Shown piece after piece: positions 128 through 15,451 of a stretch of DNA of 15,451 nt. The DNA comes from a virus, in the IMG/VR virus record IMGVR_UViG_3300050505_000217; one strand, written 5' to 3'. How positions within the stretch are numbered: position 1 is the stretch's first letter; every line of letters starts with the position of its first letter. The notes under the pieces were generated by a model. That model had not been told where the DNA came from. It saw only the letters and a list, made by a program, of their open reading frames with translations, and made no database searches. A program made the position numbers and the translations under genes.

Positions 128-1457
128 CGCCGCGCCGACGATCGCCCCCCACCCGATCGGCCCCGACGCCCCGATCGCCGGATGGCGGTGGCGGCCGTTG
201 ATCGGGCTCGAGCTGTTGCCCCAGGCCGCCTATGTGTGGGACGACACCGACGCCGACGTCACCTGGGACGACACGACCCCGGAGCGGGTGTGGGACGCCC
301 CGTTCACCACGCCGGGGGCGCTCGACGCGGTGTGCGACTGGATCGCCTGCGACATCGACCCGGGCGAACCCGACGAGCTGTACGTGTTCCCGCCGACCGT
401 CGCCACCGTCACGCTGGACAACCGGACCGGCAAGTACACCCCGTGGTCGGCGGACGGCCGTCTCGTCTACTGGGCGCCGGGCCGGCGGCTGTACGTGCTG
501 GCCCGCAACCCCGCCACCGCCGAACAACTGTGGTTGTTCTCCGGGCGGGTGGCGTCGTGGACGGTGAACGCGGATGACACGGTGACCGTCGTCGCCTACG
601 ACGGGCTGTCGTGGCTGGCCCAAGAGTTGGGCGGCGACCACACCTTCGGGACGCCGGGCGATTCGGTCGGTACCCGGATCAACGGGATCGTCTCGTCGGC
701 CGGCTACCCGGACCGGGTCGATCTCGACGCCGGCGGCGTCACGCTGTCGACCGTCACCGACGACCGGTCCCCGCTGGAGACGATCGAACGGGTCGCCCTG
801 TCCGACGGCGGCCTGTTCTACGGTGACGCCGACGGATCGGTCGACTATCGCAACCGCCTGTGGCGGGCCGGGCGCAGCGACCAGCCGACGTTGTTCACCG
901 TGTCCGACAACGTCTGTTCGGTGCCCGTCGTCGTGTGGTCGCCCGAGTTGGCCGCCGACGACGAACGTCTCGCCACCGACGTCCGCCTGGTCAACGACGC
1001 CGGGCTGGTCGCGGTGGCGACCGCGGCGGCGTCGGTGTGGCAGGGCGACGCCCGCTACCACCTGACCCACCCCGACCCGGACCTGTGGCAGTCCCAGGCC
1101 CAGGGCGACACGTTGGCCGCCTATCTGATCGCCCAACAGTCGACCCCGTCGATGGCGTTGCAACGCTTCGAGCTGTACGTGTTCGACCCGACCCAGCCCC
1201 AGGTGTGGGAGATGGCGGTACGCACCCGTCGCGGTGACCGGGTCAACGTGATTCACGACTATGTCGACCCCGACGGCACCACCGGACGCCTCGACCTGTT
1301 CGCGATCGTCCTGGGCGTCGCCCACAACCTGACCCCCGAGTCGTGGACGTCCACGATCCAGTTGTCGCGCACCGTCGACTACCGCGTCCCCGAGTTGTGG
1401 GATCTGACCCGGTTCGCCTGGGACGACGCCGACCCGGCCAACGTGTGGAGGTACTGA
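108..1457 (+). CDS. Minor tail protein (distal-tail/baseplate type)
   Basis: ATG 108 overlaps the tape measure stop (ATGA). The 449-aa ORF has strong third-position GC bias and lies directly after the tape measure. The sequence style (TLDNRTGKYTPW, GGLFYGDADGSVDYRNRLW) resembles actinophage minor tail proteins from memory. Not searched. Confidence 0.7.
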   Translation: MTRTGDVAAPTIAPHPIGPDAPIAGWRWRPLIGLELLPQAAYVWDDTDADVTWDDTTPERVWDAPFTTPGALDAVCDWIACDIDPGEPDELYVFPPTVATVTLDNRTGKYTPWSADGRLVYWAPGRRLYVLARNPATAEQLWLFSGRVASWTVNADDTVTVVAYDGLSWLAQELGGDHTFGTPGDSVGTRINGIVSSAGYPDRVDLDAGGVTLSTVTDDRSPLETIERVALSDGGLFYGDADGSVDYRNRLWRAGRSDQPTLFTVSDNVCSVPVVVWSPELAADDERLATDVRLVNDAGLVAVATAAASVWQGDARYHLTHPDPDLWQSQAQGDTLAAYLIAQQSTPSMALQRFELYVFDPTQPQVWEMAVRTRRGDRVNVIHDYVDPDGTTGRLDLFAIVLGVAHNLTPESWTSTIQLSRTVDYRVPELWDLTRFAWDDADPANVWRY

Positions 1458-1459
1458 CC

Positions 1460-2047
1460 ATGTCCGACAACCCCCCGGTTGCCACCGTCGACCCCGTCGT
1501 CGCCGACCGGTTGGCGGCGCTCGAGCAGTGGGTGTGGCAACAGCAGTCCCGTCAGGCCGACGTGCGCGCCAACCCGCCCGCCACGGTCGGCCCGTTCACC
1601 AACGTCCCGGCGCCGGGCTCGCCGATCCGGTCCGATTGGCCCCAGGCGACCGCCGGCTACCTGTCCGACAGCGCCCGTTTCCGCAACGGGACCGCGTCCG
1701 GCGGCACCGTCAACAACGGGACCGCGTTGGACATCGCCACGATCACGATTCCCGCCGCCATCTCGAGCCTGCGGGCCCAGGTGTGGGTCGTGCACTACAG
1801 CGTGCTGTTGACCGCGGCGGCCGCCGCCAAGGTCAACTTGAAGCTGTACGACCCGGCCGGCACGGCGATCTGGCTGGCCCAGTACGACGGGATCGCGTTG
1901 CGCACGGTGTCGTGGGCCAAGGCGGTGTCGGCGCCGGGCGCCTACCGGGTCAGTCTGGAGAACGTCACCGGCACGGCGGTGCCGGTGTCGACGTTCGCCG
2001 ACCCGGTCAACCACACCCTGTTCGCCGTCCAGGGCTGGACGGTGTGA
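1460..2047 (+). CDS. Putative tail fibre / receptor-binding minor tail protein
   Basis: ATG 1460 lies 8 nt after GGAGG (1447-1451) and 2 nt after the upstream stop. The 1343 start given in the ORF track would overlap the previous gene. The 195-aa product has a helical N-terminus (ADRLAALEQWVWQQQ) and a beta-rich C-terminus. Function is inferred from position only. Confidence 0.5.
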   Translation: MSDNPPVATVDPVVADRLAALEQWVWQQQSRQADVRANPPATVGPFTNVPAPGSPIRSDWPQATAGYLSDSARFRNGTASGGTVNNGTALDIATITIPAAISSLRAQVWVVHYSVLLTAAAAAKVNLKLYDPAGTAIWLAQYDGIALRTVSWAKAVSAPGAYRVSLENVTGTAVPVSTFADPVNHTLFAVQGWTV

Positions 2048-2049
2048 CC

Positions 2050-2217
2050 GTGTCGACGTTCGGGGACTGGGAGCCCGACGACGCCTGGGACGTCGAACCG
2101 GCCGACCCCGAACAGGTCGAGCGTCGCCGTGACCTGTTGCGCCGGCGCCGGTTCTCACCCGACCAGGTCGCCACGTTGATCGCCGATTGGTTGGCCCGCC
2201 AGGGGGCCGACCGGTGA
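2050..2217 (+). CDS. Hypothetical small protein (55 aa; acidic N-terminus, basic centre)
   Basis: GTG 2050 lies 2 nt after the upstream TGA, and its own stop overlaps the next start (GTGA at 2214). It fills an otherwise empty slot and has good GC3. The longer 1528 start in the track overlaps the previous gene and translates to Arg/Pro-rich sequence. Confidence 0.5.
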   Translation: MSTFGDWEPDDAWDVEPADPEQVERRRDLLRRRRFSPDQVATLIADWLARQGADR

Positions 2218-3074
2218 GCGGGATCTACTACACCGACCTGTTGGACGTGTTGACCGCGGCGGGTTGCACCGTCGCCGAGAGTGCGACGACCGACGGCTGG
2301 CAGTCCCGGGCCCGGTCGTCCGGCGGGTTCCCGTCGCCGCCGTTGGCGGTGTTCTGGCATCACACCGCGTCGGCCACGTCGCCCCCGAACGACCTGTCCT
2401 GGATGATCGACGGGTGCGACGACGCCCCGGTCGGGAACATGCTGATCGACCGTGACGGGGTGTGCTGGCCGATCGCCGCCGGCGCCTCGAACTGTGCCGG
2501 CAAGGGCGGCCCGGCCGCGTTCTCCCGTGGCACGATCCCCGCCGATTCGGGCAACACCCGTGGCTGGCAGATCGAGTGCGCCAACGACGGGGTGGGCGAG
2601 CCGTGGCCCCAGGCCCAGGTCGACGCGTGCTTCCGCGCGTCCAACGCGCTGAACGCCCGGTTCGGGAACGTGCCGACCGACGTGATCACCCACGCCCTCG
2701 GCGCCGGCGACGCCCCCGGCTGGACGTCGAGAAAGATCGACCCGGCCACCGCCGCCGCCGTCCAGGGGCCGTGGCGGCCGCGGTCGTGCTCGAGTTCGGG
2801 CACCTGGCACCTGGACGACATCCGCGCCGAGTGCGCCCGGCGCGCCGCGACCCCGACCCCGACTCCGGAGGACGACATGACCGACGAACAGGCCGCCCAA
2901 CTCAGTGAGCTGTATCAGGCGGTGTGCTCCCCGCAACCCGGGTTCACCGACCCGCAGGGCAAGACGATCAACGCGGCGTGGGCGGCGCTGTACGCCGAGG
3001 CGCTGATCGCCGGTGACGTCTACCGGATGCTGGTCGACATCCAGGCCCGGGTGACCCGGCTCGAGTCCGGCTAG
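2214..3074 (+). CDS. Endolysin, N-acetylmuramoyl-L-alanine amidase (Amidase_2/PGRP type) with a short C-terminal domain
   Basis: The motifs FWHHTAS, GWQIECANDG and ITHALG, together with the overall layout, fit zinc amidase endolysins. A Thr/Pro linker (ATPTPTPEDD) is followed by a ~65-aa C-terminal domain. I chose GTG 2214 as the start (GTGA coupling); TTG 2187 is the alternative. Confidence 0.8.
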   Translation: MSGIYYTDLLDVLTAAGCTVAESATTDGWQSRARSSGGFPSPPLAVFWHHTASATSPPNDLSWMIDGCDDAPVGNMLIDRDGVCWPIAAGASNCAGKGGPAAFSRGTIPADSGNTRGWQIECANDGVGEPWPQAQVDACFRASNALNARFGNVPTDVITHALGAGDAPGWTSRKIDPATAAAVQGPWRPRSCSSSGTWHLDDIRAECARRAATPTPTPEDDMTDEQAAQLSELYQAVCSPQPGFTDPQGKTINAAWAALYAEALIAGDVYRMLVDIQARVTRLESG

Positions 3075-3079
3075 GCGTC

Positions 3080-3274
3080 GTGGTCGGGGCGGTCGACTGG
3101 GCGAACGTCGATGTCGCCGGGGCGTTCGTGGTCGGGGCGATCCTCGCCACGGTCGCCGTGCTGCGGGTGGTCCGGGCGGTGTCGGTGATGTTCGCCGACG
3201 GTGACCGGCGTCGCGGCCATCGGCGCCGGTCACCGCCCGACGACCGTCCCGACGAGGAACAGACGAACGAATAG
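3080..3274 (+). CDS. Holin-like small membrane protein
   Basis: The 64-aa product has one hydrophobic helix (VAGAFVVGAILATVAVLRVV) followed by a highly charged Arg/Asp/Glu tail. It lies immediately after the endolysin and starts at GTG. Confidence 0.55.
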   Translation: MVGAVDWANVDVAGAFVVGAILATVAVLRVVRAVSVMFADGDRRRGHRRRSPPDDRPDEEQTNE

Positions 3275-3347
3275 GGTCGGCGGTGGCCGTGGGGCGACAT
3301 CCCTCGAACGGGGGTTGGACGGTGCACCAAGATGCGGGCCGACGGGT

Positions 3348-3407
3348 GTCACCGGCCCGGACCGTGGTCGGGAGGCGTGTCCCGACCGGACGGCCCGAGC
3401 CGGTGAC
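3348..3407. promoter_or_regulatory. 60-nt extended imperfect hairpin
   Basis: Paired by hand. 3366-3373 pairs with 3380-3387 (8 bp, 6-nt loop). After a 2-nt bulge (3388-3389), 3348-3365 pairs with 3390-3407 with two mismatches. About 24 bp in total. Confidence 0.5.
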
Positions 3408-3425
3408 CCAGTGCCCCGACCCGAC

Positions 3426-3460
3426 GTCACCGTGACCGTGACATGTGTCACCGTCGGTGA
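3426..3460. promoter_or_regulatory. Array of overlapping GTCAC/GTGAC palindromes (operator- or origin-like)
   Basis: Three palindromic units were found: GTCAC-C-GTGAC (3426-3436), GTGACA-TG-TGTCAC (3438-3451, extending to 9/10-matched arms at 3434-3455) and TCACC-GTC-GGTGA (3448-3460). There is also a tandem CGTGAC x2 (3431-3442). Further GTCAC/GTGAC copies occur at 3348, 3403 and 3515. Confidence 0.4.
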
Positions 3461-3798
3461 TCGCCGCGGGAGATGGGGCGACGCCCGTTGTACACCCCGC
3501 CCGGTCAACGCCGGGTCACGACCCCTTGAATGACAGATTTGTGATTCGCGTACCTGGTAGACGACCCGATCGTCTCGACGCCCCGCTGGCGGGGCGCCGG
3601 GAGACGCGCCCCGATAGGCGATCGGACCTGGCATCCGTCCCGTGCCGCGCGCGTCGCCCACCGACCCCGTCTGGACACACGTTCGACACCCCGCCTGTTT
3701 GGGAGCGCGCGTGTCCAGTACCTGGGGTTTCGGCCCTGTTCGGGATTATCTACCGAACGTAAGAATCATTATCGGCGCACTCGAGCCCGGACGCGACC

Positions 3799-3832
3799 GG
3801 GCCCGGTCCCCCGTTGGGGTGGGACCGGGCCC
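3799..3832 (+). terminator. Perfect 12-bp GC-rich stem-loop (candidate U-tract-less terminator or regulatory hairpin)
   Basis: GGGCCCGGTCCC (3799-3810) and GGGACCGGGCCC (3821-3832) are exact reverse complements with a 10-nt loop. No T-run follows. It lies between the end of the late genes (3274) and the first early gene (3974). Confidence 0.3.
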
Positions 3833-3973
3833 TAAGGTCTGGCGGCCGTTGCGAGACCTCACCCGCAGCGACCCGACACAATCCCGATCGCATCTCGGAG
3901 GTGTGCCAGTGCGGCACCGTACCACCCACCTGTCACACCGAAGCGGACACGCCGTGAAGTGTGAGGCGCCGAG

Positions 3974-4189
3974 ATGACCGGCACCGAGGCCGAGGCGTGG
4001 CGGGAGATGTACGACGCCCACGGCTGGATCGCCCGGGAAGTCGCCTGCGCCGTCGATGAGCTGCGCCCGATCGTGTTCGACGCCGTCGAACTGGCCGCCG
4101 TCCCCGCCGCCCTCGCCGACGTGCTGCGCCGGTTGGAAGCGGTCCACCGTGTCGCCGCCGCCGAACGCGAACGGTGGTACCGGTCGTGA
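3974..4189 (+). CDS. Hypothetical protein (71 aa, helical)
   Basis: ATG 3974 lies 7 nt after GAGG (3963-3966). GC3 bias is good. It is the first ORF after the long non-coding region. I recognise no motif. Confidence 0.6.
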   Translation: MTGTEAEAWREMYDAHGWIAREVACAVDELRPIVFDAVELAAVPAALADVLRRLEAVHRVAAAERERWYRS

Positions 4190-4713
4190 GCCGCCCGGCC
4201 GGCTTCCTCGACCCGCGCACCGTGCGCGCCTACCGTGCCGCCCACCGCGCCGCCACCACCCTCACCGAGTGCCGCGTGCTGGACGAGCTCGAACGGTGCG
4301 AACGTCGCCACGGCCGGGCCACCCCCAGCGTCGCCGGCACCGCCGCCCGCATCGGGCGCAGCCCCCGCACCGTGATCCGCGCGACCCGGGCGCTGGAAGC
4401 CGCCGGACGGCTGCGGGTGGTCCGCGACCGCCCCTACCGCGACCGTGCCGGATGCTGGCGCCGGGCCCGCACCAACCTGTACCGCGTCCTGTTGCCACCG
4501 CGAAACCCCTGGTCGCACCGAGGTGACATCGCCGACACGTCTATTGCCCCTTCGGGGGGCGATAGCGCGCCCGGGACGGCGCGCGCCGCTGTCGCGACCG
4601 GTCCGGCGCCGCCCCTGTTCGACCCGGACCACCCGCCCGGCCCTCTCGTCGGCCCCCCCGCCGACCTGCTCGCCGCCGTCCGCGCCGGTCGGTGCGCCGA
4701 GATCTACCGGTGA
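4186..4713 (+). CDS. Winged helix-turn-helix DNA-binding protein (possible replication or transcription regulator)
   Basis: GTG 4186 overlaps the upstream stop (GTGA). The segment CRVLDELERCERRHGRATPSVAGTAARIGRSPRTVIRATRALEAAGRLRVVRDR reads as a classic wHTH. The C-terminal half is Pro/Ala-rich. Confidence 0.6.
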   Translation: MSRPAGFLDPRTVRAYRAAHRAATTLTECRVLDELERCERRHGRATPSVAGTAARIGRSPRTVIRATRALEAAGRLRVVRDRPYRDRAGCWRRARTNLYRVLLPPRNPWSHRGDIADTSIAPSGGDSAPGTARAAVATGPAPPLFDPDHPPGPLVGPPADLLAAVRAGRCAEIYR

Positions 4714-4777
4714 GCGCCACACCGCTCCCCCTCGACTACGACCGCCGTGTCGTGGCGATGCTGTTGAGGCTCAGGAA

Positions 4778-4784
4778 GGGGGGG
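4778..4784 (+). other. G7 homopolymer / potential -1 slippery site (G_GGG_GGG)
   Basis: Seven consecutive G at 4778-4784. The best coding frame changes across this point (see findings). Confidence 0.6.
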
Positions 4785-4789
4785 CCGCC

Positions 4790-4972
4790 GTGTCCCGACG
4801 CGATCTCGTCCCCGCCGCTGTCGTCGTCGCCCTCGCCCTCACCGGCGTCCGGTCGGGAGACACCCGGGACCAACCAGACAGCCCCGACCGGACGCCGCAC
4901 CGTAACCCGGCGTGCGACTCGAGCGACGGACCACAGTTCAGGTGCTGGACCGACAAGGAGATGACCCGATGA
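4790..4972 (+). CDS. Small membrane/secreted protein (60 aa), possibly the 3' part of a frameshifted 4710..4972 gene
   Basis: GTG 4790 is preceded by AGGAAGGGGG. The N-terminal hydrophobic helix is VPAAVVVALALTG. By hand count GC3 is about 83%, against about 70% for the overlapping 4710 frame, and GC2 is much lower. Its stop overlaps the next start (ATGA at 4969). Confidence 0.5.
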   Translation: MSRRDLVPAAVVVALALTGVRSGDTRDQPDSPDRTPHRNPACDSSDGPQFRCWTDKEMTR

Positions 4973-5097
4973 GAGACGCCGACGAACCGGTGCCGTGTCC
5001 ACGCTGCGGCGAGCCGACCGACCGTGACGATCGGTACTGCCCGGCCTGCCGGGCCGAGTGGGCGTTGTGGTCCCAACGGATGCTGGCCGGGCCGTGA
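4969..5097 (+). CDS. Zinc-ribbon protein (42 aa; CPRC...CPAC)
   Basis: ATG 4969 lies 8 nt after AAGGAG (4955-4960) and overlaps the upstream stop. The product is MRDADEPVPCPRCGEPTDRDDRYCPACRAEW. Confidence 0.6.
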   Translation: MRDADEPVPCPRCGEPTDRDDRYCPACRAEWALWSQRMLAGP

Positions 5098-5152
5098 CCC
5101 CGACACGCTGGACAGATGACCGCGCGCGTACGTTCGACTAGCCTGGCCGGGC

Positions 5153-5431
5153 GTGGAACAGCTCACGCTCCCCCCGGAGCTGACCGCCGGCCTCGCCGCC
5201 CGCGCCCCCGCTCCCACCCTGTACGCGGTACGCGCCGAGATCCACACCCTGCGCGCCCAGGACTACGGATGGCGCACCATCGCCGCCCGGTTCAACGCCA
5301 CCGGCGTGCCGACACCGTCGGGACGGGGCCGGTGGTACGGGGCGTCGGTGATCCAAGTCGCCGACCCCAACGCCCACGCCGCCAAGATGCGCCGCTACCG
5401 GGCCCGCCAACGCGCCGCCCTGATCGCCTGA
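5153..5431 (+). CDS. Stand-alone HTH protein resembling the 'recombinase' domain of large serine recombinases (no catalytic domain)
   Basis: GWRTIAARFNATGVPTPSGRGRWYGASV matches the IA..LN..G.PTP.G..W....V signature of the recombinase/resolvase-HTH region. The product is only 92 aa. It starts at GTG with no clear SD, and GC3 is high. Confidence 0.55.
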   Translation: MEQLTLPPELTAGLAARAPAPTLYAVRAEIHTLRAQDYGWRTIAARFNATGVPTPSGRGRWYGASVIQVADPNAHAAKMRRYRARQRAALIA

Positions 5432-5441
5432 CCACGGGGCG

Positions 5442-6026
5442 ATGATCGCCGCCCTGTACGTCGAGGCCGGCGGGGTCTACACCGACGTCGCCGACGTCGA
5501 CACCTGGGACATCGCCCGTGACGCCCGCACCTATCCCGGGCCGTGGCCGGTGGTCGCCCACCCGCCGTGCAACCGGTGGTGCCAACTGGCCCCGGTCAAC
5601 GCCGCCCGCTACGGCACACCGATCGGCGACGACGACGGCACGTTCGCCGCCGCCCTGGCCGCGGTGCGCCGATGGGGCGGGGTGCTCGAGCATCCCGCCT
5701 ACTCGTTGGCGTGGCCCCGGTTCGACCTGCCCACACCCCGCCGCGGCGCCTGGACCCAGTCCCTCACCGACCCCGGGATGGTCACCGAGATATCCCAGGT
5801 GATGTACGGACACCGGGCCCGCAAACGGACCTGGCTGTACGCCGTCGGGGTCCAACCCCTCGACCTGCAATGGGGCGAACGACCCGGCCGTGTCGTCGTC
5901 GGCGCCGGCGTCCACACCGGTGAGTGCGCCGGACGGGGCCGCGCCGAACGTGACGTCCGCACCCCGCCCGCGTTCCGCGACGTTCTCGTCACGCTGGCCC
6001 GATCGGCGGTCACCGTTGGCCGATGA
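5442..6026 (+). CDS. Truncated DNA cytosine-5 methyltransferase-like protein (catalytic-core motifs only)
   Basis: ATG 5442. VVAHPPCNRW (Cys43), GVLEHPAYS (Glu83), MYGHRARKRTWLY and the C-terminal RTPPAFRDVLVTLA occur in the order and spacing of C5-MTase motifs IV, VI, VIII and X. At 194 aa there is no room for a normal AdoMet subdomain or target-recognition domain. Confidence 0.5.
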   Translation: MIAALYVEAGGVYTDVADVDTWDIARDARTYPGPWPVVAHPPCNRWCQLAPVNAARYGTPIGDDDGTFAAALAAVRRWGGVLEHPAYSLAWPRFDLPTPRRGAWTQSLTDPGMVTEISQVMYGHRARKRTWLYAVGVQPLDLQWGERPGRVVVGAGVHTGECAGRGRAERDVRTPPAFRDVLVTLARSAVTVGR

Positions 6027-6138
6027 ACCGCTGTTCGTCTGCCCGCGGTGTGGAACCGCGCTGCACCAGATCGCGCCGACACGGTGGTACTGCCATGCCT
6101 GTCGAATGGCCGTGCATCCGAAGACCGGCGATGAGTGA
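6016..6138 (+). CDS. Mini zinc-ribbon protein (40 aa), paralogue of the N-terminus of the next gene
   Basis: I propose TTG 6016 as the start. The product (L/M)ADEPLFVCPRCGTALHQIAPTRWYCHACRMAV aligns residue for residue with MSDQPLFACAECGQIL of 6131..7006. GC3 is about 30/40 in this frame. The competing ATG 6023 frame gives Arg-rich junk. Confidence 0.55.
   Translation: MADEPLFVCPRCGTALHQIAPTRWYCHACRMAVHPKTGDE
6022..6042 (+). repeat. 21-nt direct repeat, copy 1 (19/21 identical to 6137..6157)
   Basis: Compare gatgaaccgctgttcgtctgc with gatcaaccgctgttcgcctgc, 115 nt apart. They encode the D(E/Q)PLF(V/A)C start of the two zinc ribbons. Confidence 0.85.
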
Positions 6139-7006
6139 TCAACCGCTGTTCGCCTGCGCCGAGTGCGGCCAGATTCTCCCGCTCGACCAATGGGCGAGAC
6201 ATCACTGTCTCGCGCCAGCGGTCAAGAATCCGGCACTTGCCCGGTTCTACCTCGGTACCCACATGCCCGCCTGGCTGACCCGTGTCGACGTTCCCCTGTT
6301 CGTCTCCCAACGCCGCCTCGCCAAACGTCGCACATACCGACCGGCCCACACCCGATGGGCGCTCGACTCGGGGGCGTTCACCGAGATCTACCTCTACCGC
6401 GAGTACGCCACCACACCGGCCGCCTACATCGCCGCCGCCCGCCGCTACCGCGACGAGATCGGCCGGCTCGACTGGATCGCCCCACAGGACCACATGTGTG
6501 AGCCGTTCGTCCTCGCCACTTCCCGCATCGCCCGCACCGTCCCGACCGCCCAACGCCACACCGTCGACAACTACCTGACGTTGCGGACCCTCGCCCCCGA
6601 TCTGCCGATCATCCCCGTGTTGCAAGGCCAGACGCTGGCCGACTACTGGCGGTGCGCCGACATGTACGAACGTGCCGGCGTCGACCTGCACCGTGAACGT
6701 CTCGTCGGCCTGGGGTCGGTGTGCCGACGTGAGGCAACCGACGAGATCGCGCAGCTCGTCGCCAACCTGTCAGCCGACGGCCTGCGACTGCACGGGTTCG
6801 GGGTGAAGACAGACGGGCTGCGCCGTTACGGTTGGTGTCTCACGTCGGCTGATTCGATGGCGTGGTCGTATCGGGGTCGCAACATCCACCCGTGTCCACA
6901 CACCGGGGTGAAGTCCTGTGCCAACTGTCTGCCCCACGCCCTGGCCTGGCGGGAGCGGGCGATCGCCGCCGTGCCTCGCCCCGTACAACTGGGACTAGCG
7001 GTGTGA
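6131..7006 (+). CDS. dpdA: DpdA-like DNA (7-deazaguanine) transglycosylase, TGT superfamily, with an N-terminal zinc ribbon
   Basis: ATG 6131 overlaps the upstream ORF by 8 nt. Motifs in order: FYLGTHMPAWL, PLFVS, ALDSGAF (Asp79), APQDHMCEP, IPVLQG, GLGSVCRR, LHGFGVK, SADSMAWS (Asp241), and a C-terminal Cys/His cluster HPCPHTGVKSCANCLPH. This matches my memory of the DpdA family and the TGT catalytic landmarks. Not searched. Confidence 0.7.
   Translation: MSDQPLFACAECGQILPLDQWARHHCLAPAVKNPALARFYLGTHMPAWLTRVDVPLFVSQRRLAKRRTYRPAHTRWALDSGAFTEIYLYREYATTPAAYIAAARRYRDEIGRLDWIAPQDHMCEPFVLATSRIARTVPTAQRHTVDNYLTLRTLAPDLPIIPVLQGQTLADYWRCADMYERAGVDLHRERLVGLGSVCRREATDEIAQLVANLSADGLRLHGFGVKTDGLRRYGWCLTSADSMAWSYRGRNIHPCPHTGVKSCANCLPHALAWRERAIAAVPRPVQLGLAV
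6137..6157 (+). repeat. 21-nt direct repeat, copy 2
   Basis: See 6022..6042. Confidence 0.85.
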
Positions 7007-7018
7007 GCTGGGCCGACC

Positions 7019-7393
7019 GTGGCTGACCCTGCCTACCGTGAGCCCGCCTACCTGGCGGCGCTGTCGGTGCTGGCCGGCGGTGAGCATCGGTGTGTGTGGT
7101 GCGGGGCCCGGGCCTCGACACCCGATCACGTCCCGGCGTTGGCCGATCACCGCCACGTCGCCGGGTCGGGGTGCTGTCGGTTGGCGCCGGCGTGTCGTCG
7201 TTGCCAGTCGGCGGGAGGGGCGCAGGTGTCGAACCGTCGTCGTCGCGCGTCGTCGCGGTCGCGTCTCGCTCCGGGCTCGAGCGTTCTTGGATCGGGGGGA
7301 GCGGTTGGACGCCGCCGGCGTCCGGGTTCTCTCTCCCGCCGGGCCGGGACGCCCCGCGTAACTACGGTTCGGCCCGATGCGGACCGATCGTGA
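7019..7393 (+). CDS. HNH endonuclease (packaging-associated type)
   Basis: GTG start. CVWCG...TPDHVP...RLAPACRRCQSAGG is a CxxC / DH / CxxC HNH zinc-finger layout. It lies directly upstream of the terminase genes. The C-terminal ~50 residues are Arg/Ser/Gly-rich with weaker codon bias. Confidence 0.7.
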   Translation: MADPAYREPAYLAALSVLAGGEHRCVWCGARASTPDHVPALADHRHVAGSGCCRLAPACRRCQSAGGAQVSNRRRRASSRSRLAPGSSVLGSGGAVGRRRRPGSLSRRAGTPRVTTVRPDADRS

Positions 7394-7794
7394 CCCGTCC
7401 GCCCACGCCGCACCTGCCGGGCCTGGGCGACGACACCGGTGCCCGTGTCGCCCGGGTCCGCCGGTACGTCGACCGCCAGCTGCGGGCCCAACGGGCGATG
7501 GGCCAGATCGAACCGGTCGACGCCGGACTGGTCGGCCTGGCGATGACCGCGGCGGACGCGATCGACCGCGACGTCGCCGACCCGGACGTGTCCAGCTTCA
7601 CGCTGTACCGCGGGATCGACGTCACCGCCCGCCTGTTGCTCGAGCTGCGCGGGGAGCGCCGTGACAGCGCCGGCGATCTCGGCTACGACGACGAACTGGC
7701 ACGCCTCACCGCCGAGATTCGCGACGCCGCGCGATCCCGAGCGTCCGACCACGGGCCCGTCGACCCTGGCCCACCTGACCCGTCTGCGCCGTAG
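7390..7794 (+). CDS. Putative terminase small subunit
   Basis: GTG 7390 overlaps the HNH stop (GTGA). The 134-aa helical protein lies immediately upstream of, and overlaps, the large terminase. The call rests on position and size only. The upstream part of track ORF 7090..7794 is Arg/Gly-rich and overlaps the HNH gene. Confidence 0.5.
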   Translation: MTRPPTPHLPGLGDDTGARVARVRRYVDRQLRAQRAMGQIEPVDAGLVGLAMTAADAIDRDVADPDVSSFTLYRGIDVTARLLLELRGERRDSAGDLGYDDELARLTAEIRDAARSRASDHGPVDPGPPDPSAP

Positions 7795-9187
7795 ACCGCC
7801 GTACCCGTGGCAGTGGGATGTCGCCGACGTCGCCGGCGAGATCAACGACGACGGCACCGGGTTCCGTTACGGCGTGGTGGTGCTGTCGGTGCCGCGCCGC
7901 GCCGGCAAGACGACCCTGTCGCTCGCCGTCAACCTGGACCATCTCGACATCACGTCGGATCAGCGCGCCTGGTACACCGCGCAACGACGCGAGACCGCGG
8001 CCAAGCTGTTTCGCGACGAGTGGGTGCCGATGCTCGAGCCGTTGTCGCGGCTGTACCGGTTGCGCCGCTCCCAGGGGTCCGAAGGTGTCCACAAACGCCG
8101 CGGTTCGTCCCGCCTGCAGTTGTTCGCCCCGACCGCCGACGCGTTGCACTCGACCAACGCCGACACCGTCACCGTGGACGAGGCGTGGGCGTTCGACGTG
8201 GAATCCGGCGAAGCGTTGGAAGGTGGCATCCGCCCCGCCCAGTTGACCCGGCCGTGGCGTCAGACCTGGATCGTGTCGGCCGGCGGCACCGTCGAGTCGA
8301 CGTGGTGGGACCGTTGGCTGACCGCCGGCGCGTCCGGACTGCCCGGCGTCGCCATGTTCGACTACGGCGCCGACCCGACCGACCCGGGCTACGACCCGGC
8401 CGACCCGGCGGTGTGGGTCGGCGCCCATCCGACCGCCGGGATCGCGTTCGGCCTCGACGTGTTGCACCGGGAATGGGCGATCCGCGAATCGGACGCCGCG
8501 TTTGAACGGGCCTACCTGAACGTGTGGCCCCGCCCGTCGGAGGTGCTGGCGGCCGCCGGGGTGGACCTGGCGTTGTGGTCCGCCGCCGCCCGTCCGTCCG
8601 TCTCGGTGACGTCGGTGCGGGCGGTGGCGTTCGACGTCGCCGGCGACCGCTCGAGCGCCGCGGTCGCCGTGGCCGGCCCCGGCCCCGACGGTGCCACCGT
8701 GGTCGAAGTGATCGACGCCCGCCGCGGTGTCGGCTGGTTGGCCGCCGCCGTGCGCGACGCCCGCCGCGCCCATCCCGGCGCCCGTGTCGTCGCCGATTCG
8801 TTGGTCACCGCCGGGGTCATCGCCGAGCTGCGCCGGGTCCGGGTCGCCGTCGACCCGGTCGGCGCCGGCGACCACGCCCGGGCCTGCGGCGCGTTCTTGG
8901 ACGCCCTCGCCGACGGACGGCTGTCCCACCGCGCCCAGGCCGTGTTGGACGACGCCGTGATCGGCGCCGCCCGCCGACCGTTGGGCGACGCCTGGTTGTG
9001 GTCGCGGGCCCGGTCCGGGGTCGACATCTCGCCGTTGGTGGCGGTGACCCTGGCGGCGTGGTCGGTCGCCGTCGCCGCCCCCCGTGGCCGTGGCGCCGTC
9101 GTCGTCGCCGCTCCCGATCGCCCGGCCCCCAGGTACCCGGCGGGCCGTTTCGGCCGTCCTGGGGCCACCGGGGCGTCGATGCGTTGA
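7661..9187 (+). CDS. Terminase large subunit
   Basis: Features seen are Walker A VPRRAGKTT, a Walker B-like TVTVDEAW, and PYPWQW upstream of the P-loop. The product is 508 aa. GTG 7661 (after GGGGAG 7651-7656) is the only canonical in-frame start upstream of the conserved N-terminal motifs, and it gives a 134-nt overlap with the previous gene. Confidence 0.8.
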   Translation: MTAPAISATTTNWHASPPRFATPRDPERPTTGPSTLAHLTRLRRRPPYPWQWDVADVAGEINDDGTGFRYGVVVLSVPRRAGKTTLSLAVNLDHLDITSDQRAWYTAQRRETAAKLFRDEWVPMLEPLSRLYRLRRSQGSEGVHKRRGSSRLQLFAPTADALHSTNADTVTVDEAWAFDVESGEALEGGIRPAQLTRPWRQTWIVSAGGTVESTWWDRWLTAGASGLPGVAMFDYGADPTDPGYDPADPAVWVGAHPTAGIAFGLDVLHREWAIRESDAAFERAYLNVWPRPSEVLAAAGVDLALWSAAARPSVSVTSVRAVAFDVAGDRSSAAVAVAGPGPDGATVVEVIDARRGVGWLAAAVRDARRAHPGARVVADSLVTAGVIAELRRVRVAVDPVGAGDHARACGAFLDALADGRLSHRAQAVLDDAVIGAARRPLGDAWLWSRARSGVDISPLVAVTLAAWSVAVAAPRGRGAVVVAAPDRPAPRYPAGRFGRPGATGASMR

Positions 9188-9207
9188 CGTCGTTACGTAA
9201 CGACGTC
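9186..9207. repeat. Perfect 22-bp palindrome GACGTCGTTACGTAACGACGTC
   Basis: Verified to be its own reverse complement. It overlaps the last two bases of the TerL stop codon (9185-9187) and sits in a short, relatively AT-rich spacer. Confidence 0.9.
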
Positions 9208-9221
9208 GTACGTCGCGATCG

Positions 9222-9386
9222 ATGGCAACGAAATCTTCCGCCGATCCCGCCGCCGACCTGGCCGCCGGGAAGATCGATGACACCGAGTTTCACCGCCGCA
9301 TCGCCGAAGCCGGCGCCGCCGCGACGACCGCCGAAGCGTTGAACCCCCCCGACGCCGGCACCGGCGCCGCCGCCCCCACCACCTGA
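9222..9386 (+). CDS. Hypothetical small protein (54 aa, Ala-rich)
   Basis: Not in the supplied ORF track (below its length cutoff). Translated by hand: ATG 9222 to TGA 9384-9386 gives MATKSSADPAADLAAGKIDDTEFHRRIAEAGAAATTAEALNPPDAGTGAAAPTT. GC3 is high and it fills the TerL-portal gap. No obvious SD. Confidence 0.4.
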   Translation: MATKSSADPAADLAAGKIDDTEFHRRIAEAGAAATTAEALNPPDAGTGAAAPTT

Positions 9387-9390
9387 CGCG

Positions 9391-10569
9391 ATGGCGCGTC
9401 GGTGGGGGGAGCGGCTGGCCGGTCTGCTCGAGTTCGGCGCCGGCGTCCCCGTCCTGCCGTCGGGGGCGCCGGTGGCCGCCGCCGCGCCGGCGCGCCGTGG
9501 GGTCAACGTGTCCCGCGGGTTCTCGTCGCCGACGGTGCCGTGGGGCCTGGGCCCGCCGTTGGCCCCGGTCGACGTCGCCGACGGATGGGGCCTGGTCGAC
9601 CGTGACGCGGCGATGTCGTTGCCGACGATCCAACGGGGCCGTGACCTGATCGTCTCGGCGGTGTCGGCGTGTCCGTTCACGTTGTGGCGCACCGACCGGA
9701 CCGTGATCCCCCCGACCGACGAACGCATCGGCGACGCCGGATGGTTCGACACGCCCGACCCCGATCAGACCTGTCAGTGGCTGTTGGCGTGGACGGTGGA
9801 CGACCTGTTGTTCTACTCCGACGCCTACTGGCGGGTCACCGCCCGCTACGCCGACACCGGCTACCCGCGGGCGTTCCGCCGGATCGCCCCGGGCTGTCTC
9901 GACGTGCGCGACGGGTTCGTCATGGTCACCGACCCGCTGTACAACGACGGCCGGCCCGAACGTGTCGAGCTCGCCGACGTGATCGAGTTCTGCTCCCCGC
10001 TGGAAGGGCTGTTGAACAACGGCGGGCGGGCCATCGGGATCGCCCTGTCGTTGGACGCCGCCGCCGCCCGGTTCGCCGACAACGAAGTCCCCGCCGGCTA
10101 CCTGCGCCAACGCGAAGGGTCCGAGGATCTGACCACCGCCGAGATGGCCGACGAGACGGCGGCGTGGACGATCGCCCGGCGCACCGGCACCGTCGCCTAC
10201 CTCAACCAGTGGACCGAGTACGTCGAGGCGTCCTACGACCCGTCCCGGATGCAGGTCGTGGAAGGGCGCACCTATCAGGCGCTCGAGCTGTCCCGCCTGG
10301 CGAACATTCCGCCCTATCTGACCGGCGCCCCCGCCGGTACCGGGATGACTTATCTGAACGCCGAACAGGCCAAGGCCGACCTGATCGATTTCGGCGCCGC
10401 CCCGCTGATCACCTGTCTGGAACAGACGTTGTCGGGGCCACGGGTGACACCGCGGGGCCAACACGTCCGCTTGGACCTGAACGTGTGGCTGCGCAACCCG
10501 TTCAACCCGCCGACCCCGCTGTCCCAGCCCGAGGTGCCCGCCCCGCCCGTCACCGAGGTGCCGTCGTGA
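9391..10569 (+). CDS. Portal protein
   Basis: The 392-aa ORF lies between the terminase and the protease/capsid gene. Size and sequence style fit HK97-family portals. ATG 9391 lies 4 nt after the preceding small ORF. Confidence 0.8.
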   Translation: MARRWGERLAGLLEFGAGVPVLPSGAPVAAAAPARRGVNVSRGFSSPTVPWGLGPPLAPVDVADGWGLVDRDAAMSLPTIQRGRDLIVSAVSACPFTLWRTDRTVIPPTDERIGDAGWFDTPDPDQTCQWLLAWTVDDLLFYSDAYWRVTARYADTGYPRAFRRIAPGCLDVRDGFVMVTDPLYNDGRPERVELADVIEFCSPLEGLLNNGGRAIGIALSLDAAAARFADNEVPAGYLRQREGSEDLTTAEMADETAAWTIARRTGTVAYLNQWTEYVEASYDPSRMQVVEGRTYQALELSRLANIPPYLTGAPAGTGMTYLNAEQAKADLIDFGAAPLITCLEQTLSGPRVTPRGQHVRLDLNVWLRNPFNPPTPLSQPEVPAPPVTEVPS

Positions 10570-12245
10570 CCGCTGTCGCCGCCGCCGCCACCACCGACCA
10601 CCTGTCGGTCGTGTTCCACCGTCCGGTCGCCGCCGCCGGCGCCACCGGGGCGCGCACCGTCGGCGGGCTCGCCGTGCCGTGGGGGGTGCCGGGCCGGGTC
10701 GCCGACGGCCGTACCGTCGTGTTCGACCCCGGTTCGTTGGACGCCGCCGCCCGCCCGGTCGCGTTGCGCGACCACGACCGGGGCCGCGCCGTCGGACGGG
10801 TGGTCGACGCCGTCGACACCGGCGCCGGGATCGACGCCACCGTCCGCCTCGCCCCCCAGGTGCCCGACGCCGACCAGGTGTTGGCGTTGGCCGCCGACGG
10901 GGTGCCGTTGATGTTCTCGGTGGGGGCCACCCCGACCGACGCCGACTACGACGCCGACGGCACGTTGCACGTCCGTGCCGGCACCTGGGACGAGTTGTCG
11001 ATTCTCACGTTCGGCGCGTTCGGCGGGGCCACCGTCGACCGTGTCGCCGCCGCTGCAACCACCGGAGGAACCATGCCACCCGACCTGCTCACGTTGGACG
11101 ACGACGAGTCGACGCCGGACGAACCCGACGCCCCGCCCGAACCCGACCCCGACGCCCCCGACCCCGCCGACGGCGCCGAACACGTCACGCTCGAGCCGGT
11201 CACCGCGGCCGCCGGGTTCCGCCCGTTCCGCCGCGCCGCGGCGGCACGGGCCCATCCGTTCGCCGGTGTCGACCTGGCGACGCTGTCGCGCTACATCGCC
11301 GCCGCCGCCACGTCGGCCGACCCCCGGATCGTCGGCCACGTCCAGCGGGTGTTGACGTCGCCGGGCGCCCGGGCGTTCCCGTTGGACGCCCCGATCGCCG
11401 CCGCCCTCACCGACGTGACCCTGGTCGGCACCAACAACGTCGGCGCCGCCTACCGTCCCGGCTACCAGGCCGAGTTGGTCGACATCGTGTCGCACGGCTC
11501 GCCGGCGGTCGACATGGTCCGCCAGGGGAACCTCGAGCGGGGCGACTATCCGAACAAGACGTTCAACAAGTGGACCAAGGTGCCGACCGTCGCCCTGCAG
11601 TCCGCCGAGAAGGTGGCGATCAACACGACCCCCGTCCAGATCGTCCCGACCGCGGTGCCGGTGCAGACGTGGGCGACCGGCAACGACATCTCCCAACAGG
11701 CCCTGGATTTCGGGTCGCCGTCGTTCATCGACGACTACATCCGGGCCGCCGGCGTGTCCTACGCGTCGGTGATCGACACGTACGCGGTGACCGCCCTGTT
11801 GGCCGCGGCGACTGACGTGCCGACCGTGCTGGGCGACAAGCTGCCGGTGATCATCGGCAAGCTGTTCGCCGCGTTGAACCCGGCCAACGTCCCGGCCGGA
11901 CCGATGGTGATGTTGGTGTCGTGGGATCTCGGCGCCGGCGCCATGGGGATCGTCGGCCAGGACAACGCCCCGGTGTTCTGGGACGGCACCGTCAATTTCG
12001 GATCGTTCACCCCGTCGGTCGACATGGGCGGGCTCACCGTCCAGGTCGACCCGAACATGCCCGCCAACACCGCGATCCTGATGTTGGCCAACGCGGCGAC
12101 CTGGTACGACCTGCCCGGCACCCCGTTCAGCCTGCGGGCGATCAACGTCGGCCAGTTGGGCCTCGACGTCGCCGTGTACGGCTACGGCGCCCTGGGCGTG
12201 CAATACCAGGGGGCGATCGTCAAGACGACGGTGCCGCAGACGTGA
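10566..12245 (+). CDS. Prohead protease - major capsid protein fusion
   Basis: GTG 10566 overlaps the portal stop (GTGA). The N-terminal ~165 aa resemble the HK97-type (S78) prohead protease, with His in LRDHDRG and Ser in LMFSVG. A Pro/Asp acidic linker follows, then a ~330-aa HK97-fold capsid-like region. It is one uninterrupted frame. The portion of the 858-aa track ORF upstream of 10566 is Arg-rich and overlaps the portal gene. Confidence 0.75.
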   Translation: MTAVAAAATTDHLSVVFHRPVAAAGATGARTVGGLAVPWGVPGRVADGRTVVFDPGSLDAAARPVALRDHDRGRAVGRVVDAVDTGAGIDATVRLAPQVPDADQVLALAADGVPLMFSVGATPTDADYDADGTLHVRAGTWDELSILTFGAFGGATVDRVAAAATTGGTMPPDLLTLDDDESTPDEPDAPPEPDPDAPDPADGAEHVTLEPVTAAAGFRPFRRAAAARAHPFAGVDLATLSRYIAAAATSADPRIVGHVQRVLTSPGARAFPLDAPIAAALTDVTLVGTNNVGAAYRPGYQAELVDIVSHGSPAVDMVRQGNLERGDYPNKTFNKWTKVPTVALQSAEKVAINTTPVQIVPTAVPVQTWATGNDISQQALDFGSPSFIDDYIRAAGVSYASVIDTYAVTALLAAATDVPTVLGDKLPVIIGKLFAALNPANVPAGPMVMLVSWDLGAGAMGIVGQDNAPVFWDGTVNFGSFTPSVDMGGLTVQVDPNMPANTAILMLANAATWYDLPGTPFSLRAINVGQLGLDVAVYGYGALGVQYQGAIVKTTVPQT

Positions 12246-12649
12246 CGGTGGCGTGGACGTCGCCGGCGACGGTGTCGACCGCCCTGGGCGGCACCGTCGA
12301 GGCCGACGACGTCTACCTGGCCGCCTGTTGCGACGCCGCCAACGCGTGGGCGTTCCGCAAACGGCTCGAGGCCGGCTACCACGACGACCCGTTGGACGGT
12401 GCCGCCGCCCCGTCCCCCGACGTCGCAATGGGCGCCACGTTGTACGCGGTGGCGTTGTGGCGTGAACGTGCCGCCACCGACGGCTATCCGTCGTTCGAGG
12501 ATCTCGCCACGTACGCCCCGACCGGCGGGTCGTCGGGTCAGATCCGCCGCCTGTTGGGGATCGGCCGGCCCGCCACCGACGCCGGCGCGCTCGACCCCGC
12601 CACCGTCGCCGCCTACCGGGCCCGACGCGTCGCACGGTGGTCGCGGTGA
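12242..12649 (+). CDS. Head-tail adaptor (gp6-like connector)
   Basis: GTG 12242 overlaps the capsid stop (GTGA). The 135-aa product sits directly after the capsid gene, and the N-terminal style (..DDVYLAACCDAANAWAFRKR..) is typical of gp6-like connectors. Confidence 0.6.
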   Translation: MTVAWTSPATVSTALGGTVEADDVYLAACCDAANAWAFRKRLEAGYHDDPLDGAAAPSPDVAMGATLYAVALWRERAATDGYPSFEDLATYAPTGGSSGQIRRLLGIGRPATDAGALDPATVAAYRARRVARWSR

Positions 12650-13014
12650 CCGCGTCGATCAGCGCCGAGCGTGCCGGGATGGCCGACAAGTTGAACGCCG
12701 CCGGCGACCCGGCCCTGTTCGCCGCCACCGTCGACCCGGCCGCCAACCCGCCGATGATCCTGGTCGACGCCGCCAGCTACGACACCGCCGCCGGGCCCGG
12801 CGGATGGTCGGTCACGATCCCGGTGCGCGTCGTCGTGCCCGCGCCGGGCGACGCCGCCGCGCTGGCCCTGTTGGAAGCCGCCGTCGAAGCGGTCTACGCG
12901 GTGCTGGGGTTCGCCCCGGCCGAACCGCGGCCGTGGGCACCGAACCCCAACGTCGCCGCCCTGCCCGCCTACACGCTCACCTATCCGCGTCGGATCCCCA
13001 ATCCGACCTGTTGA
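12646..13014 (+). CDS. Neck / tail-terminator-like protein
   Basis: GTG 12646 overlaps the upstream stop (GTGA); GTG 12637 is the alternative. The 122-aa product lies between the adaptor and the major tail protein. Function is inferred from position only. Confidence 0.4.
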   Translation: MTASISAERAGMADKLNAAGDPALFAATVDPAANPPMILVDAASYDTAAGPGGWSVTIPVRVVVPAPGDAAALALLEAAVEAVYAVLGFAPAEPRPWAPNPNVAALPAYTLTYPRRIPNPTC

Positions 13015-13026
13015 ACAGAGGTTCCG

Positions 13027-13524
13027 ATGCCCCAGTCCCTGATGGTCTACACGTTCCCCAAGCTGGTCATCGCCGACACCCAGGCCGGTTTGGACACCGC
13101 CACCGAGACGTACGAATGCCAGGTGACCGCGGCAACCATCGATCCGACGGTGGCGTTCGCCACCGTGCCGTCGACCGGTTGCACCGGCCCGTCCCAGTCG
13201 CCCGGCACACCGTCGTGGACCCTCAACCTGGCCTGGCTGCAGGATTGGGCCGCACCCGCCGGCGGCCTGTCCGGCTACGCGTTCACCAACCGCAACACGC
13301 AGAAATGGGTCCGGTTGGTGCCCGACAAGAACGACGTCGCGGTGGCCGGCGAGGGACAGGTGTGGATCGCCCCGGGCCGGATGGGCGGCACGTTCGGCGA
13401 CGGGTCCGCCGGTGTCGCCGAGGCCGCCTGGCAGTTCATCGGCGAACCGTCGTTCGATTTCCCGGCGACCACCGTCGCCGCCGACACCGCCGACACCGCC
13501 GCCGACGACGCCGTCGCGGTCTGA
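13027..13524 (+). CDS. Major tail protein
   Basis: ATG 13027 lies after AGAGG. The 165-aa product is beta-rich and Thr/Ala-rich with an acidic C-terminus. It occupies the canonical slot upstream of the tape measure. Confidence 0.6.
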   Translation: MPQSLMVYTFPKLVIADTQAGLDTATETYECQVTAATIDPTVAFATVPSTGCTGPSQSPGTPSWTLNLAWLQDWAAPAGGLSGYAFTNRNTQKWVRLVPDKNDVAVAGEGQVWIAPGRMGGTFGDGSAGVAEAAWQFIGEPSFDFPATTVAADTADTAADDAVAV

Positions 13525-15435: not shown

Positions 15436-15451
15436 CCCGCACCGGCGACGT
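15325..15451. repeat. Terminal exact direct repeat, copy B (same as 1..127)
   Basis: See copy A. It contains the tape measure stop and the first 20 nt of the minor tail gene (15432..15451, the same bases as 108..127). Confidence 0.95.

Follow-up and report, generated by a model that had tools for sequence, protein, structure and literature searches.

The 15,451-nucleotide viral record IMGVR_UViG_3300050505_000217, analysed here over its full length and referred to as the window, carries on its + strand an open reading frame (ORF) of 291 aa at 6131..7006 that is, judged by profile and predicted fold, a member of the tRNA-guanine transglycosylase (TGT)/DpdA superfamily with its catalytic signature intact. 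Sequence comparison places the protein in the known 'DpdA-only' group of Hutinet et al. 2019. It is an ordinary member of that clade with one unusual fusion, an N-terminal zinc ribbon, and it does not constitute a new kind of system. As to function, we lean towards a stand-alone DNA guanine transglycosylase that would use a salvaged or host-supplied 7-deazaguanine. This reading is favoured because the catalytic set is intact, the fold is DpdA-like, the neighbours of the gene in its relatives include DNA-modification genes, and a relative of a precursor transporter recurs as its partner. The question reaches beyond one genome. A lone DpdA is found in hundreds of cultured mycobacteriophages and at no fewer than 484 loci of bacterial genomes, and the gene has been worth keeping even in one of the smallest tailed-phage genomes. 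In about a third of the clade members, dpdA shares an operon with a gene related to that of the queuosine-precursor importer, which provides a new and testable lead.

Family, fold and catalytic residues

The ORF at 6131..7006 matches the Pfam family PF23859 (DpdA) with an E-value of 7.9e-80 and a score of 268.4 bits against a cut-off of 27, over profile positions 4-255 of 291, and it matches phrog_1279 with an E-value of 2e-82. Its AlphaFold2 model has a predicted local distance difference test (pLDDT) score of 92. When this model was compared with solved structures in Foldseek, Salmonella DpdA (7UI4) was the top match (E 9.3e-8), followed by eight bacterial and eukaryotic TGT/QTRT1 entries. 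All of these had a probability of 1.0 and a template modelling (TM) score of about 0.5, and the next fold class had an E-value at least 100-fold worse. Searches of the PDB sequences with the window protein, by phmmer and by profile, returned only spurious R-spondin matches, and the DpdA of phage Rosebush found no match there either. Since sequence-only searches of the PDB fail, the link of this ORF to solved structures rests on fold comparison. An earlier note, made from the letters of this DNA without database searches, had read the ORF as DpdA/TGT-like, and both the Pfam match and the fold comparison bear this out.

The motifs on which that note had relied (FYLGTHMPAWL, PLFVS, ALDSGAF, GLGSVCRR, LHGFGVK, and SADSMAWS) are all present where it had placed them. 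Three aspartates on the + strand stand out, namely Asp79 in LDSGAF (GAC codon, 6365..6367), the putative general acid/base; Asp120 in APQDHM (GAC codon, 6488..6490), the putative base-recognition residue; and Asp241 in SADSMAW (GAT codon, 6851..6853), the putative nucleophile. Among 62 aligned homologues, D79, D120, E124, Q165-G166, G193/G195/S196/C198/R199, H221-G-F-G224, D241-S242, and C266 are invariant. The Rosebush DpdA inserts dPreQ0, and in a profile alignment with it LDSGAF corresponds to GDSGAF, VGLGSVCRR to VGLGGLVGR, HGFGVK to HGWGIT, and SADSMAW to SVDSSGW. In the Salmonella enzyme (bDpdA), Asp95 serves as acid/base and Asp256 as nucleophile, and Asp130 also has a role (PMC10164549). 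The D-x3-F spacing at Asp79 equals that of Asp95 and Phe99 in Salmonella DpdA (PMC10164549), and we infer that D79, D120, and D241 are the equivalents of bDpdA Asp95, Asp130, and Asp256.

The C-terminal Cys/His cluster announced by the earlier note is also present (C255-x-H257-x5-C263-x2-C266-x2-H269, 6893..6937, + strand). Its spacing is unlike the CXCX2CX22H arrangement of bDpdA; C255 and C263 are conserved in at least 90% of the aligned homologues, next to the invariant C266. From this conservation, C255, H257, C263, C266, and H269 probably form a structural zinc site.

The DpdA-only clade

Relatives were retrieved from IMG/VR with an alignment as query, used in place of a single-protein query that had found one locus only. 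Together with bacterial genomes, this provided 161 DpdA loci (81 from IMG/VR and 80 from bacterial genomes), in which neighbours were sought within 10 kb. The clade is present in at least 484 loci of GTDB representatives, and the 80 of them that are listed belong mostly to Actinomycetota, among them Streptomyces, Kribbella, Nocardia, Amycolatopsis, Saccharothrix, and Solirubrobacterales. In these genomes (loci L178-L256), the clade is often found on actinomycete integrative/conjugative elements with RepSA, TraG/TrwB, FtsK/SpoIIIE, and integrase genes, besides prophages.

A tblastn search found homologues in 407 phage records, 399 of which are Mycobacterium phages. The best phage matches, about 53% identical to the window protein, are proteins of cluster K mycobacteriophages; these are annotated as 'queuine tRNA-ribosyltransferase' or 'DpdA-like' and have no preQ0 genes nearby. 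Gp20 of Mycobacterium phage Orion is 47% identical (E 1e-73). Hutinet et al. described a third group of 76 phages that have DpdA without homologs of G+ or preQ0 biosynthesis proteins, and the singleton DpdAs of Mycobacterium phages formed their own cluster in a similarity network (PMC6884629). In the literature searched, no later resolution of the function of the DpdA-only clade was found after 2019. The window protein resembles this group (Orion gp20 and clusters K and B1) in its 47-54% identity across the whole core of about 255 aa, in a genome devoid of preQ0 genes, and in its actinobacterial setting. It differs in its fused zinc ribbon, which was seen in none of the other members, in a genome size of 15.3 kb compared with 60-68 kb, and in its gene neighbours. 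The earlier note could not place the gene combination in any described deazaguanine system. With 47% identity to Orion gp20 and membership in the DpdA-only group, the DpdA itself does have a described place.

The lack of preQ0 synthesis genes in the genome was correctly recognised by that note. Bases 1-127 are an identical direct repeat of 15325-15451, so the assembly is circularly closed and comprises 15,324 unique bp. No preQ0-pathway gene turned up when all plausible ORFs of the window were scanned against Pfam, and tblastn with the Rosebush QueC, QueD, QueE, and FolE proteins gave nothing below E 0.1. A YhhQ-type transporter gene is likewise absent from the window. As this complete genome holds no genes for 7-deazaguanine synthesis, the DpdA must use a base that the phage does not make, as the earlier note had argued.

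Phage DpdA1 proteins that are accompanied by a preQ0 pathway (Rosebush gp2, CAjan, and 9g) belong to the same superfamily, and the window protein can be aligned with them at the motifs DSGAF, HG(F/W)G, and (A/V)DS and at the Gly-rich loop. In Rosebush as in the window, dpdA lies beside the terminase genes. The similarity is nevertheless remote (hhalign probability 69%), and the Rosebush protein is 385 aa long and is followed by queC-queD-queE-folE, none of which occurs in the window. The DpdA of the Salmonella Montevideo Dpd island (7UI4) is the best structural match and has the same predicted catalytic triad of aspartates, but it is only 13% identical; it has 413 aa with a large insertion, its zinc site is of the form CXCX2CX22H, and it depends on the DpdB ATPase (PMC10164549). 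Pfam scans found no window ORF with a domain matching DpdB, DpdC, or DpdD-K, and the scans of the window revealed no linked genes for precursor synthesis or tailoring, no dedicated profiles having been used for DpdL/M/N.

A transporter-like gene and methyltransferases beside dpdA

Genes flanking dpdA were surveyed in about 112 non-redundant loci by Pfam counts on gene calls guided by G+C content at third codon positions (GC3). This replaced an all-against-all clustering of the flanking ORFs, in which the many alternative-frame ORFs that high-GC DNA contains had obscured the genes. Vut_1 (PF02592) was the commonest Pfam family directly upstream of DpdA, and DNA methyltransferases came next, on both sides. 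Gene calling caught 10 of the 48 YhhQ-like genes, and tblastn with Vut_1 proteins supplied the others.

Altogether, a YhhQ-like gene is present in 48 of the 161 loci, on the same strand as dpdA and with its end touching or overlapping the dpdA start (for example L015 9516-10043, L016 8440-8979, and L020 9489-9995, with 45 other loci). The pairing persists after dereplication: it is present in 43 of 129 clusters when the DpdAs are grouped at 90% identity, and in 29 of 100 when they are grouped at 80%. The product is a multi-pass membrane protein of about 170 aa. These genes match Vut_1 with E-values down to 1.8e-12, and the proteins match TIGR00697 'queuosine precursor transporter' (E 1e-10 to 6e-5) as well as the YhhQ model NF008406. 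Transport of preQ0 by YhhQ has been validated (Zallot 2017, cited in PMC6884629), and YhhQ genes have been described for the CAjan cluster and for about 9% of the dpd islands of bacteria (PMC7544227, PMC11888242). In the literature searched, we found no description of a YhhQ-like/dpdA two-gene unit for the DpdA-only clade.

The pair is found in viral contigs and actinobacterial genomes alike. In these units of actinobacterial phages and integrative elements, the partner DpdAs are 49-58% identical to that of the window and are interleaved with it in the tree; the window differs in having no transporter gene. The idea that YhhQ linkage marks a subclade to which the window does not belong was dropped, as YhhQ-positive loci are scattered over the neighbour-joining tree of DpdAs.

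DNA methyltransferase genes lie immediately upstream of dpdA in 13 of 112 loci (C5 in six, N6_N4 in five, and UPF0020 in two) and immediately downstream in 9 of 113 (C5 in six, and D12, N6_N4, and Dam in one each). Genes for preQ0 synthesis occur within 10 kb of dpdA in a single locus of the 161 (L072). This locus is a 126-kb viral contig with a dense DNA-modification island that contains two DpdA types, 5 kb apart. A Rosebush-like DpdA with QueC/QueD/QueE/FolE occupies 1151-4825, and a C5-methyltransferase gene, a DpdA of the DpdA-only clade, a PAPS-reductase-like gene, and a Mom-family gene stand in a row at 8894-13028.

Proposed mechanism and alternatives

As a stand-alone DNA guanine transglycosylase, the window protein would attack C1' of a target deoxyguanosine through Asp241, with Asp79 as the general acid/base. 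Guanine would depart and a 7-deazaguanine-type base would be put in its place. This base would be drawn from the pool of the infected cell, imported or host-made and not phage-made, and in a third of the relatives import may proceed via the YhhQ-like transporter whose gene is in an operon with dpdA. Phage DNA would be modified only when precursor is supplied, and any such modification would shield it from restriction. For the window phage, which has no transporter, activity would depend on what its host imports or makes. That DNA is the target, which base is used and where it comes from, and that the outcome is protective are points that we infer.

Several observations weigh against this reading. 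Orion is the only phage of the DpdA-only clade that has been tested, and the result was negative, with no dPreQ0, dADG, dG+, dPreQ1, or dQ detected in its DNA; moreover, mycobacteria, including the Orion host M. smegmatis, are without any preQ0 pathway genes (PMC6884629). The YhhQ-like proteins fall short of the NCBIfam equivalog cut-offs, so that a queuosine precursor is their putative cargo, and the window and its nearest DpdA relatives (L010, L173, L013, L177, L011/12, and L019) have no YhhQ-like gene. The bDpdA equivalents of D79, D120, and D241 are assigned from sequence, and the figures for methyltransferase neighbours are plain counts. The negative Orion result would itself be expected under a salvage model, because the host lacks the pathway and no transporter gene lies near the Orion dpdA (the medium was unchecked).

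The foremost alternative, which we consider unlikely but deserving of weight, is that the clade has diverged in function. It may insert a base outside the five assayed 7-deazaguanines, or it may simply excise guanine as a DNA glycosylase, with host DNA as one conceivable target, and the missing preQ0 genes would then leave no gap for salvage to fill. The Orion result and the absence of the pathway from M. smegmatis agree with such a divergence, as does the separate clustering of singleton DpdAs in the published similarity network (PMC6884629). The coexistence in L072 of a Rosebush-type DpdA and a DpdA of this clade also suggests non-redundant roles, and the loop reads GSVCRR where Rosebush has GGLVGR. 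However, all three catalytic aspartates and the Gly-rich loop are kept, and a third of the loci pair dpdA with a relative of the queuosine-precursor transporter.

A more elaborate possibility, to which we give rather less credence, is that the clade installs an unassayed base or exchanges guanine for a purpose other than camouflage. In the window, it may do so with a miniature C5-methyltransferase-like protein, the two enzymes marking G and C from a single 1.6-kb cassette.

It is improbable that tRNA is the target. In this case, the YhhQ-like importer and the TGT-like enzyme would be a minimal set for salvaging queuosine precursors, and mobile elements would bring it into Actinomycetota that lack queuosine. 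Comparable queuine salvage by YhhQ and TGT occurs in some pathogens. The pairing of the two genes, the strong structural matches to TGTs, and the database annotation 'queuine tRNA-ribosyltransferase' would all fit. However, the best profile and fold matches are to DpdA and not to TGT, and the usual neighbours are DNA methyltransferases, Mom, and HNH genes. In addition, the core is only about 255 aa long and has no large insertion. In bDpdA this insertion accounts for 30% of the protein, and the corresponding region of TGT touches the anticodon stem of the tRNA (PMC10164549).

The accessory cassette

The surroundings of the window dpdA are best understood from a related phage, L264 (14,574 nt, with a 123-nt terminal repeat), whose TerL is 64% identical to that of the window and whose DNA is 68-70% identical over TerS/TerL and the structural genes. 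Its gene order is p92-like, HNH, TerS, TerL, with nothing that matches 5442-7006. The absence of this block from L264 marks 5442-7006 as an accessory cassette, in which two enzymes have been joined in this lineage only. The G+C content is 67% at 6001-7000 compared with 70-77% in most other stretches, and GC3 is 0.83 in the DpdA core and 0.68-0.73 in the ribbons compared with 0.87-0.91 in the flanking core genes (p92, TerS, and TerL). The DpdA gene probably arrived within this 1.6-kb cassette, inserted just upstream of the HNH/terminase genes. Two further genes lie in the cassette, one C5-methyltransferase-like and unrelated to dpdA, the other a small ORF for a zinc ribbon.

The first of these genes, at 5442..6026 (+ strand), encodes a 194-aa protein that matches phrog_12600 (E 1.7e-51). 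It has no Pfam match, and a profile of its diverse family finds no Pfam family, PF00145 included, and no PDB chain. The model has a pLDDT of 92. Its top PDB matches in Foldseek are all C5 DNA methyltransferases (DNMT3A/B, M.HaeIII, and DNMT1), at weak values (E 0.01-0.3, TM 0.3-0.42), and its matches in BFVD are short phage 'cytosine methylases' (best E 1.6e-4). Invariant AHPPC, LEHPA, and Q..YGH.ARK sequences in phrog_12600 stand at the expected places of motifs IV (PC), VI (ENV), and VIII (QxRxR). The first Gly of motif I (FxGxG) is replaced, the half that would bind S-adenosylmethionine is shortened, and 194 aa leave no room for a normal target-recognition domain. The label 'C5-methyltransferase-like', which the earlier note had given to this ORF, is therefore a fair one at the level of the predicted fold; no profile or sequence match supports it.

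The protein is one of a very large family of putative minimal C5-methyltransferase-like phage proteins. The approximately 8,000 or more proteins of phrog_12600 fall into at least 1,898 clusters at 50% identity. The family has no Pfam model, and it also occurs in microviruses and in phages of Pseudomonas, Caulobacter, Ralstonia, and Xanthomonas. Rarely, its members are fused to NUDIX or HNH+AP2 domains; these partners were considered as a clue to function and gave no hint. The region of Rhodobacter microvirus Ebor that encodes Gp8, a 'putative DNA methylase', shows 35% identity to the window protein and belongs to the same family with a C5-methyltransferase-like fold, and methylation in Ebor could not be assigned to Gp8 (PMC11980548).

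The second gene is a mini zinc-ribbon ORF of 40 codons at 6016..6138 (+ strand), with a C-x2-C-x13-C-x2-C motif and weak Pfam zinc-ribbon matches. It runs from a TTG at 6016 to the stop at 6136-6138, and it overlaps the 194-aa ORF (stop 6024-6026) by 11 nt and the DpdA ATG by 8 nt. Its frame has a GC3 of 0.73, compared with 0.60-0.64 in the other two frames. A longer DpdA of 327 aa was also considered, with its start at ATG 6023, which overlaps the stop codon of the 194-aa ORF as ATGA. It was dropped because the intervening 36 codons are Arg-rich, have a GC3 of 0.64, and contain no recognisable motif, while the zinc ribbon read in the other frame is clean and has a GC3 of 0.73.

The DpdA protein itself begins with a zinc-ribbon-like extension (C9, C12, H23/H24, and C25; 6131..6241, + strand), as indicated by its motif and model. 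Met45 is the sole in-frame start between 6131 and the FYLGTH motif, and the 37-residue N-terminus therefore belongs to the DpdA protein. The pLDDT is about 80 at residues 1-26 and below 50 at 27-31, the latter being a floppy linker. This extension is absent from the 61 other aligned DpdA homologues and from all 161 homologous loci. The mini ribbon is 43% identical to the DpdA N-terminus over 30 aa and 48% identical over 29 aa to a third ribbon at 4912-5097. The paralogy proposed by the earlier note has modest support from these short alignments. The 15-kb genome holds three short ribbons that appear to be paralogous, one free-standing (61 aa, 4912-5097), one wedged in as the 40-codon ORF, and one fused to DpdA. 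The fused ribbon may possibly contact DNA or bind a partner.

The earlier note had presented these genes as a linked module with dpdA. The geometry that it described is real, with overlaps of 11 and 8 nt and an HNH-like ORF after a 12-nt gap. The 194-aa family, however, occurs in none of the 161 DpdA loci within 10 kb, and DpdA occurs in none of 80 IMG/VR loci that carry the 194-aa family. The earlier note had held that a lack of co-occurrence between the 5442..6026 family and DpdA would count against the module, and no co-occurrence was found. The mini ribbon has no homologue in any retrieved locus of either set. On these comparisons, the neighbours of DpdA in the window form no conserved module. 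What survives is a weaker form of the claim, in which DNA methyltransferases as a class recur beside the DpdA clade while the 194-aa family does not.

An integrated new deazaguanine-type system made up of the 194-aa protein, the mini ribbon, DpdA, and HNH is thus very improbable and is largely refuted by the co-occurrence tests. The tight packing with overlapping stop and start codons, the duplication of a zinc ribbon and its fusion to DpdA, and the recurrence of methyltransferases as a class would speak for it. In addition to the zero counts in both directions and ribbons seen in no other locus, the 194-aa family is also found in microviruses and in Pseudomonas and Caulobacter phages, and HNH goes with the terminase. 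Finally, we give hardly any credence to a decaying or inactive passenger gene, which would suit the negative Orion result (PMC6884629) and a genome without precursor supply, but the ORF is intact with every family-invariant residue and a confident model, and it is retained among about 22 genes with identical copies on contigs from several samples.

Genome organization and related phages

The genome has a G+C content of about 72%, and its approximately 22 genes are, apart from the cassette, structural, lysis, replication-initiator, and packaging genes. The order begins with minor tail proteins, an Amidase_2 endolysin, and a holin-like protein, followed by a 700-nt gap without genes. Next are a replication-initiator-like helix-turn-helix (HTH) protein, small zinc-ribbon and HTH proteins, and the 5442-7006 block; TerS-like, TerL, portal, capsid, major tail, and tape-measure genes lie 3' of it. 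Sister contigs indicate that this soil phage is present in several metagenome samples. No DNA-level match was obtained when the entire window was compared by megablast with 50,697 phage records, and no tRNA genes or Rfam families were found in the window. A scan of 3000-8000 revealed no promoter-like sites, and terminator-like sites were not above chance.

The left border of the cassette is formed by a 92-aa HTH-like protein (p92, 5153..5431, + strand) that is 50% identical to a protein of L264, where HNH, TerS, and TerL come directly after it. The right-hand context, taken from gene calls on sister contigs, consists of a TerS-like gene (7390-7794, + strand) and TerL (7874-9187, + strand; phrog_9 terminase, E 2e-43). 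The TerL proteins of Rhodococcus phage RRH1 (14.3 kb) and of the Arthrobacter AN-cluster phages (15.5 kb) share 35% identity with that of the window.

Between DpdA and TerS lies the HNH-like ORF (7019..7393, + strand; phrog_7785, E 0.0028), which starts 12 nt past the DpdA stop. Its CxxC...DH...CxxC motif resembles the N-terminal HNH of the HNH-TerL fusions found in L010 and L019, and on this likeness it goes with the packaging/terminase genes. The ORF is not called by gene callers on sister contigs, and GC3 falls from 0.80 in its core to 0.63 in its tail. This doubtful 3' third (7232-7393) is Arg/Ser-rich and contains a terminator-like hairpin at 7305-7325 with a T-rich run, of a kind no more frequent in the scan than expected by chance. 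The true HNH gene may be shorter, or the hairpin may close an early transcript.

The gap 3' of the holin-like gene covers window positions 3275-3973. At the matching position, L264 has tyrosine-integrase-like and Xis/HTH-like genes; no integrase or Xis/HTH remnant, promoter, RNA family, or repeat was detected in 3275-3973. Soil metagenomes contain diverse 14-17-kb high-GC tailed phages akin to the window (L258, L261, L262, L264, L173, L171, and others), with TerL identities to the window of 30-77%. An integrase is present in some of them and not in the window, and the accessory genes between their early and packaging modules differ from phage to phage.

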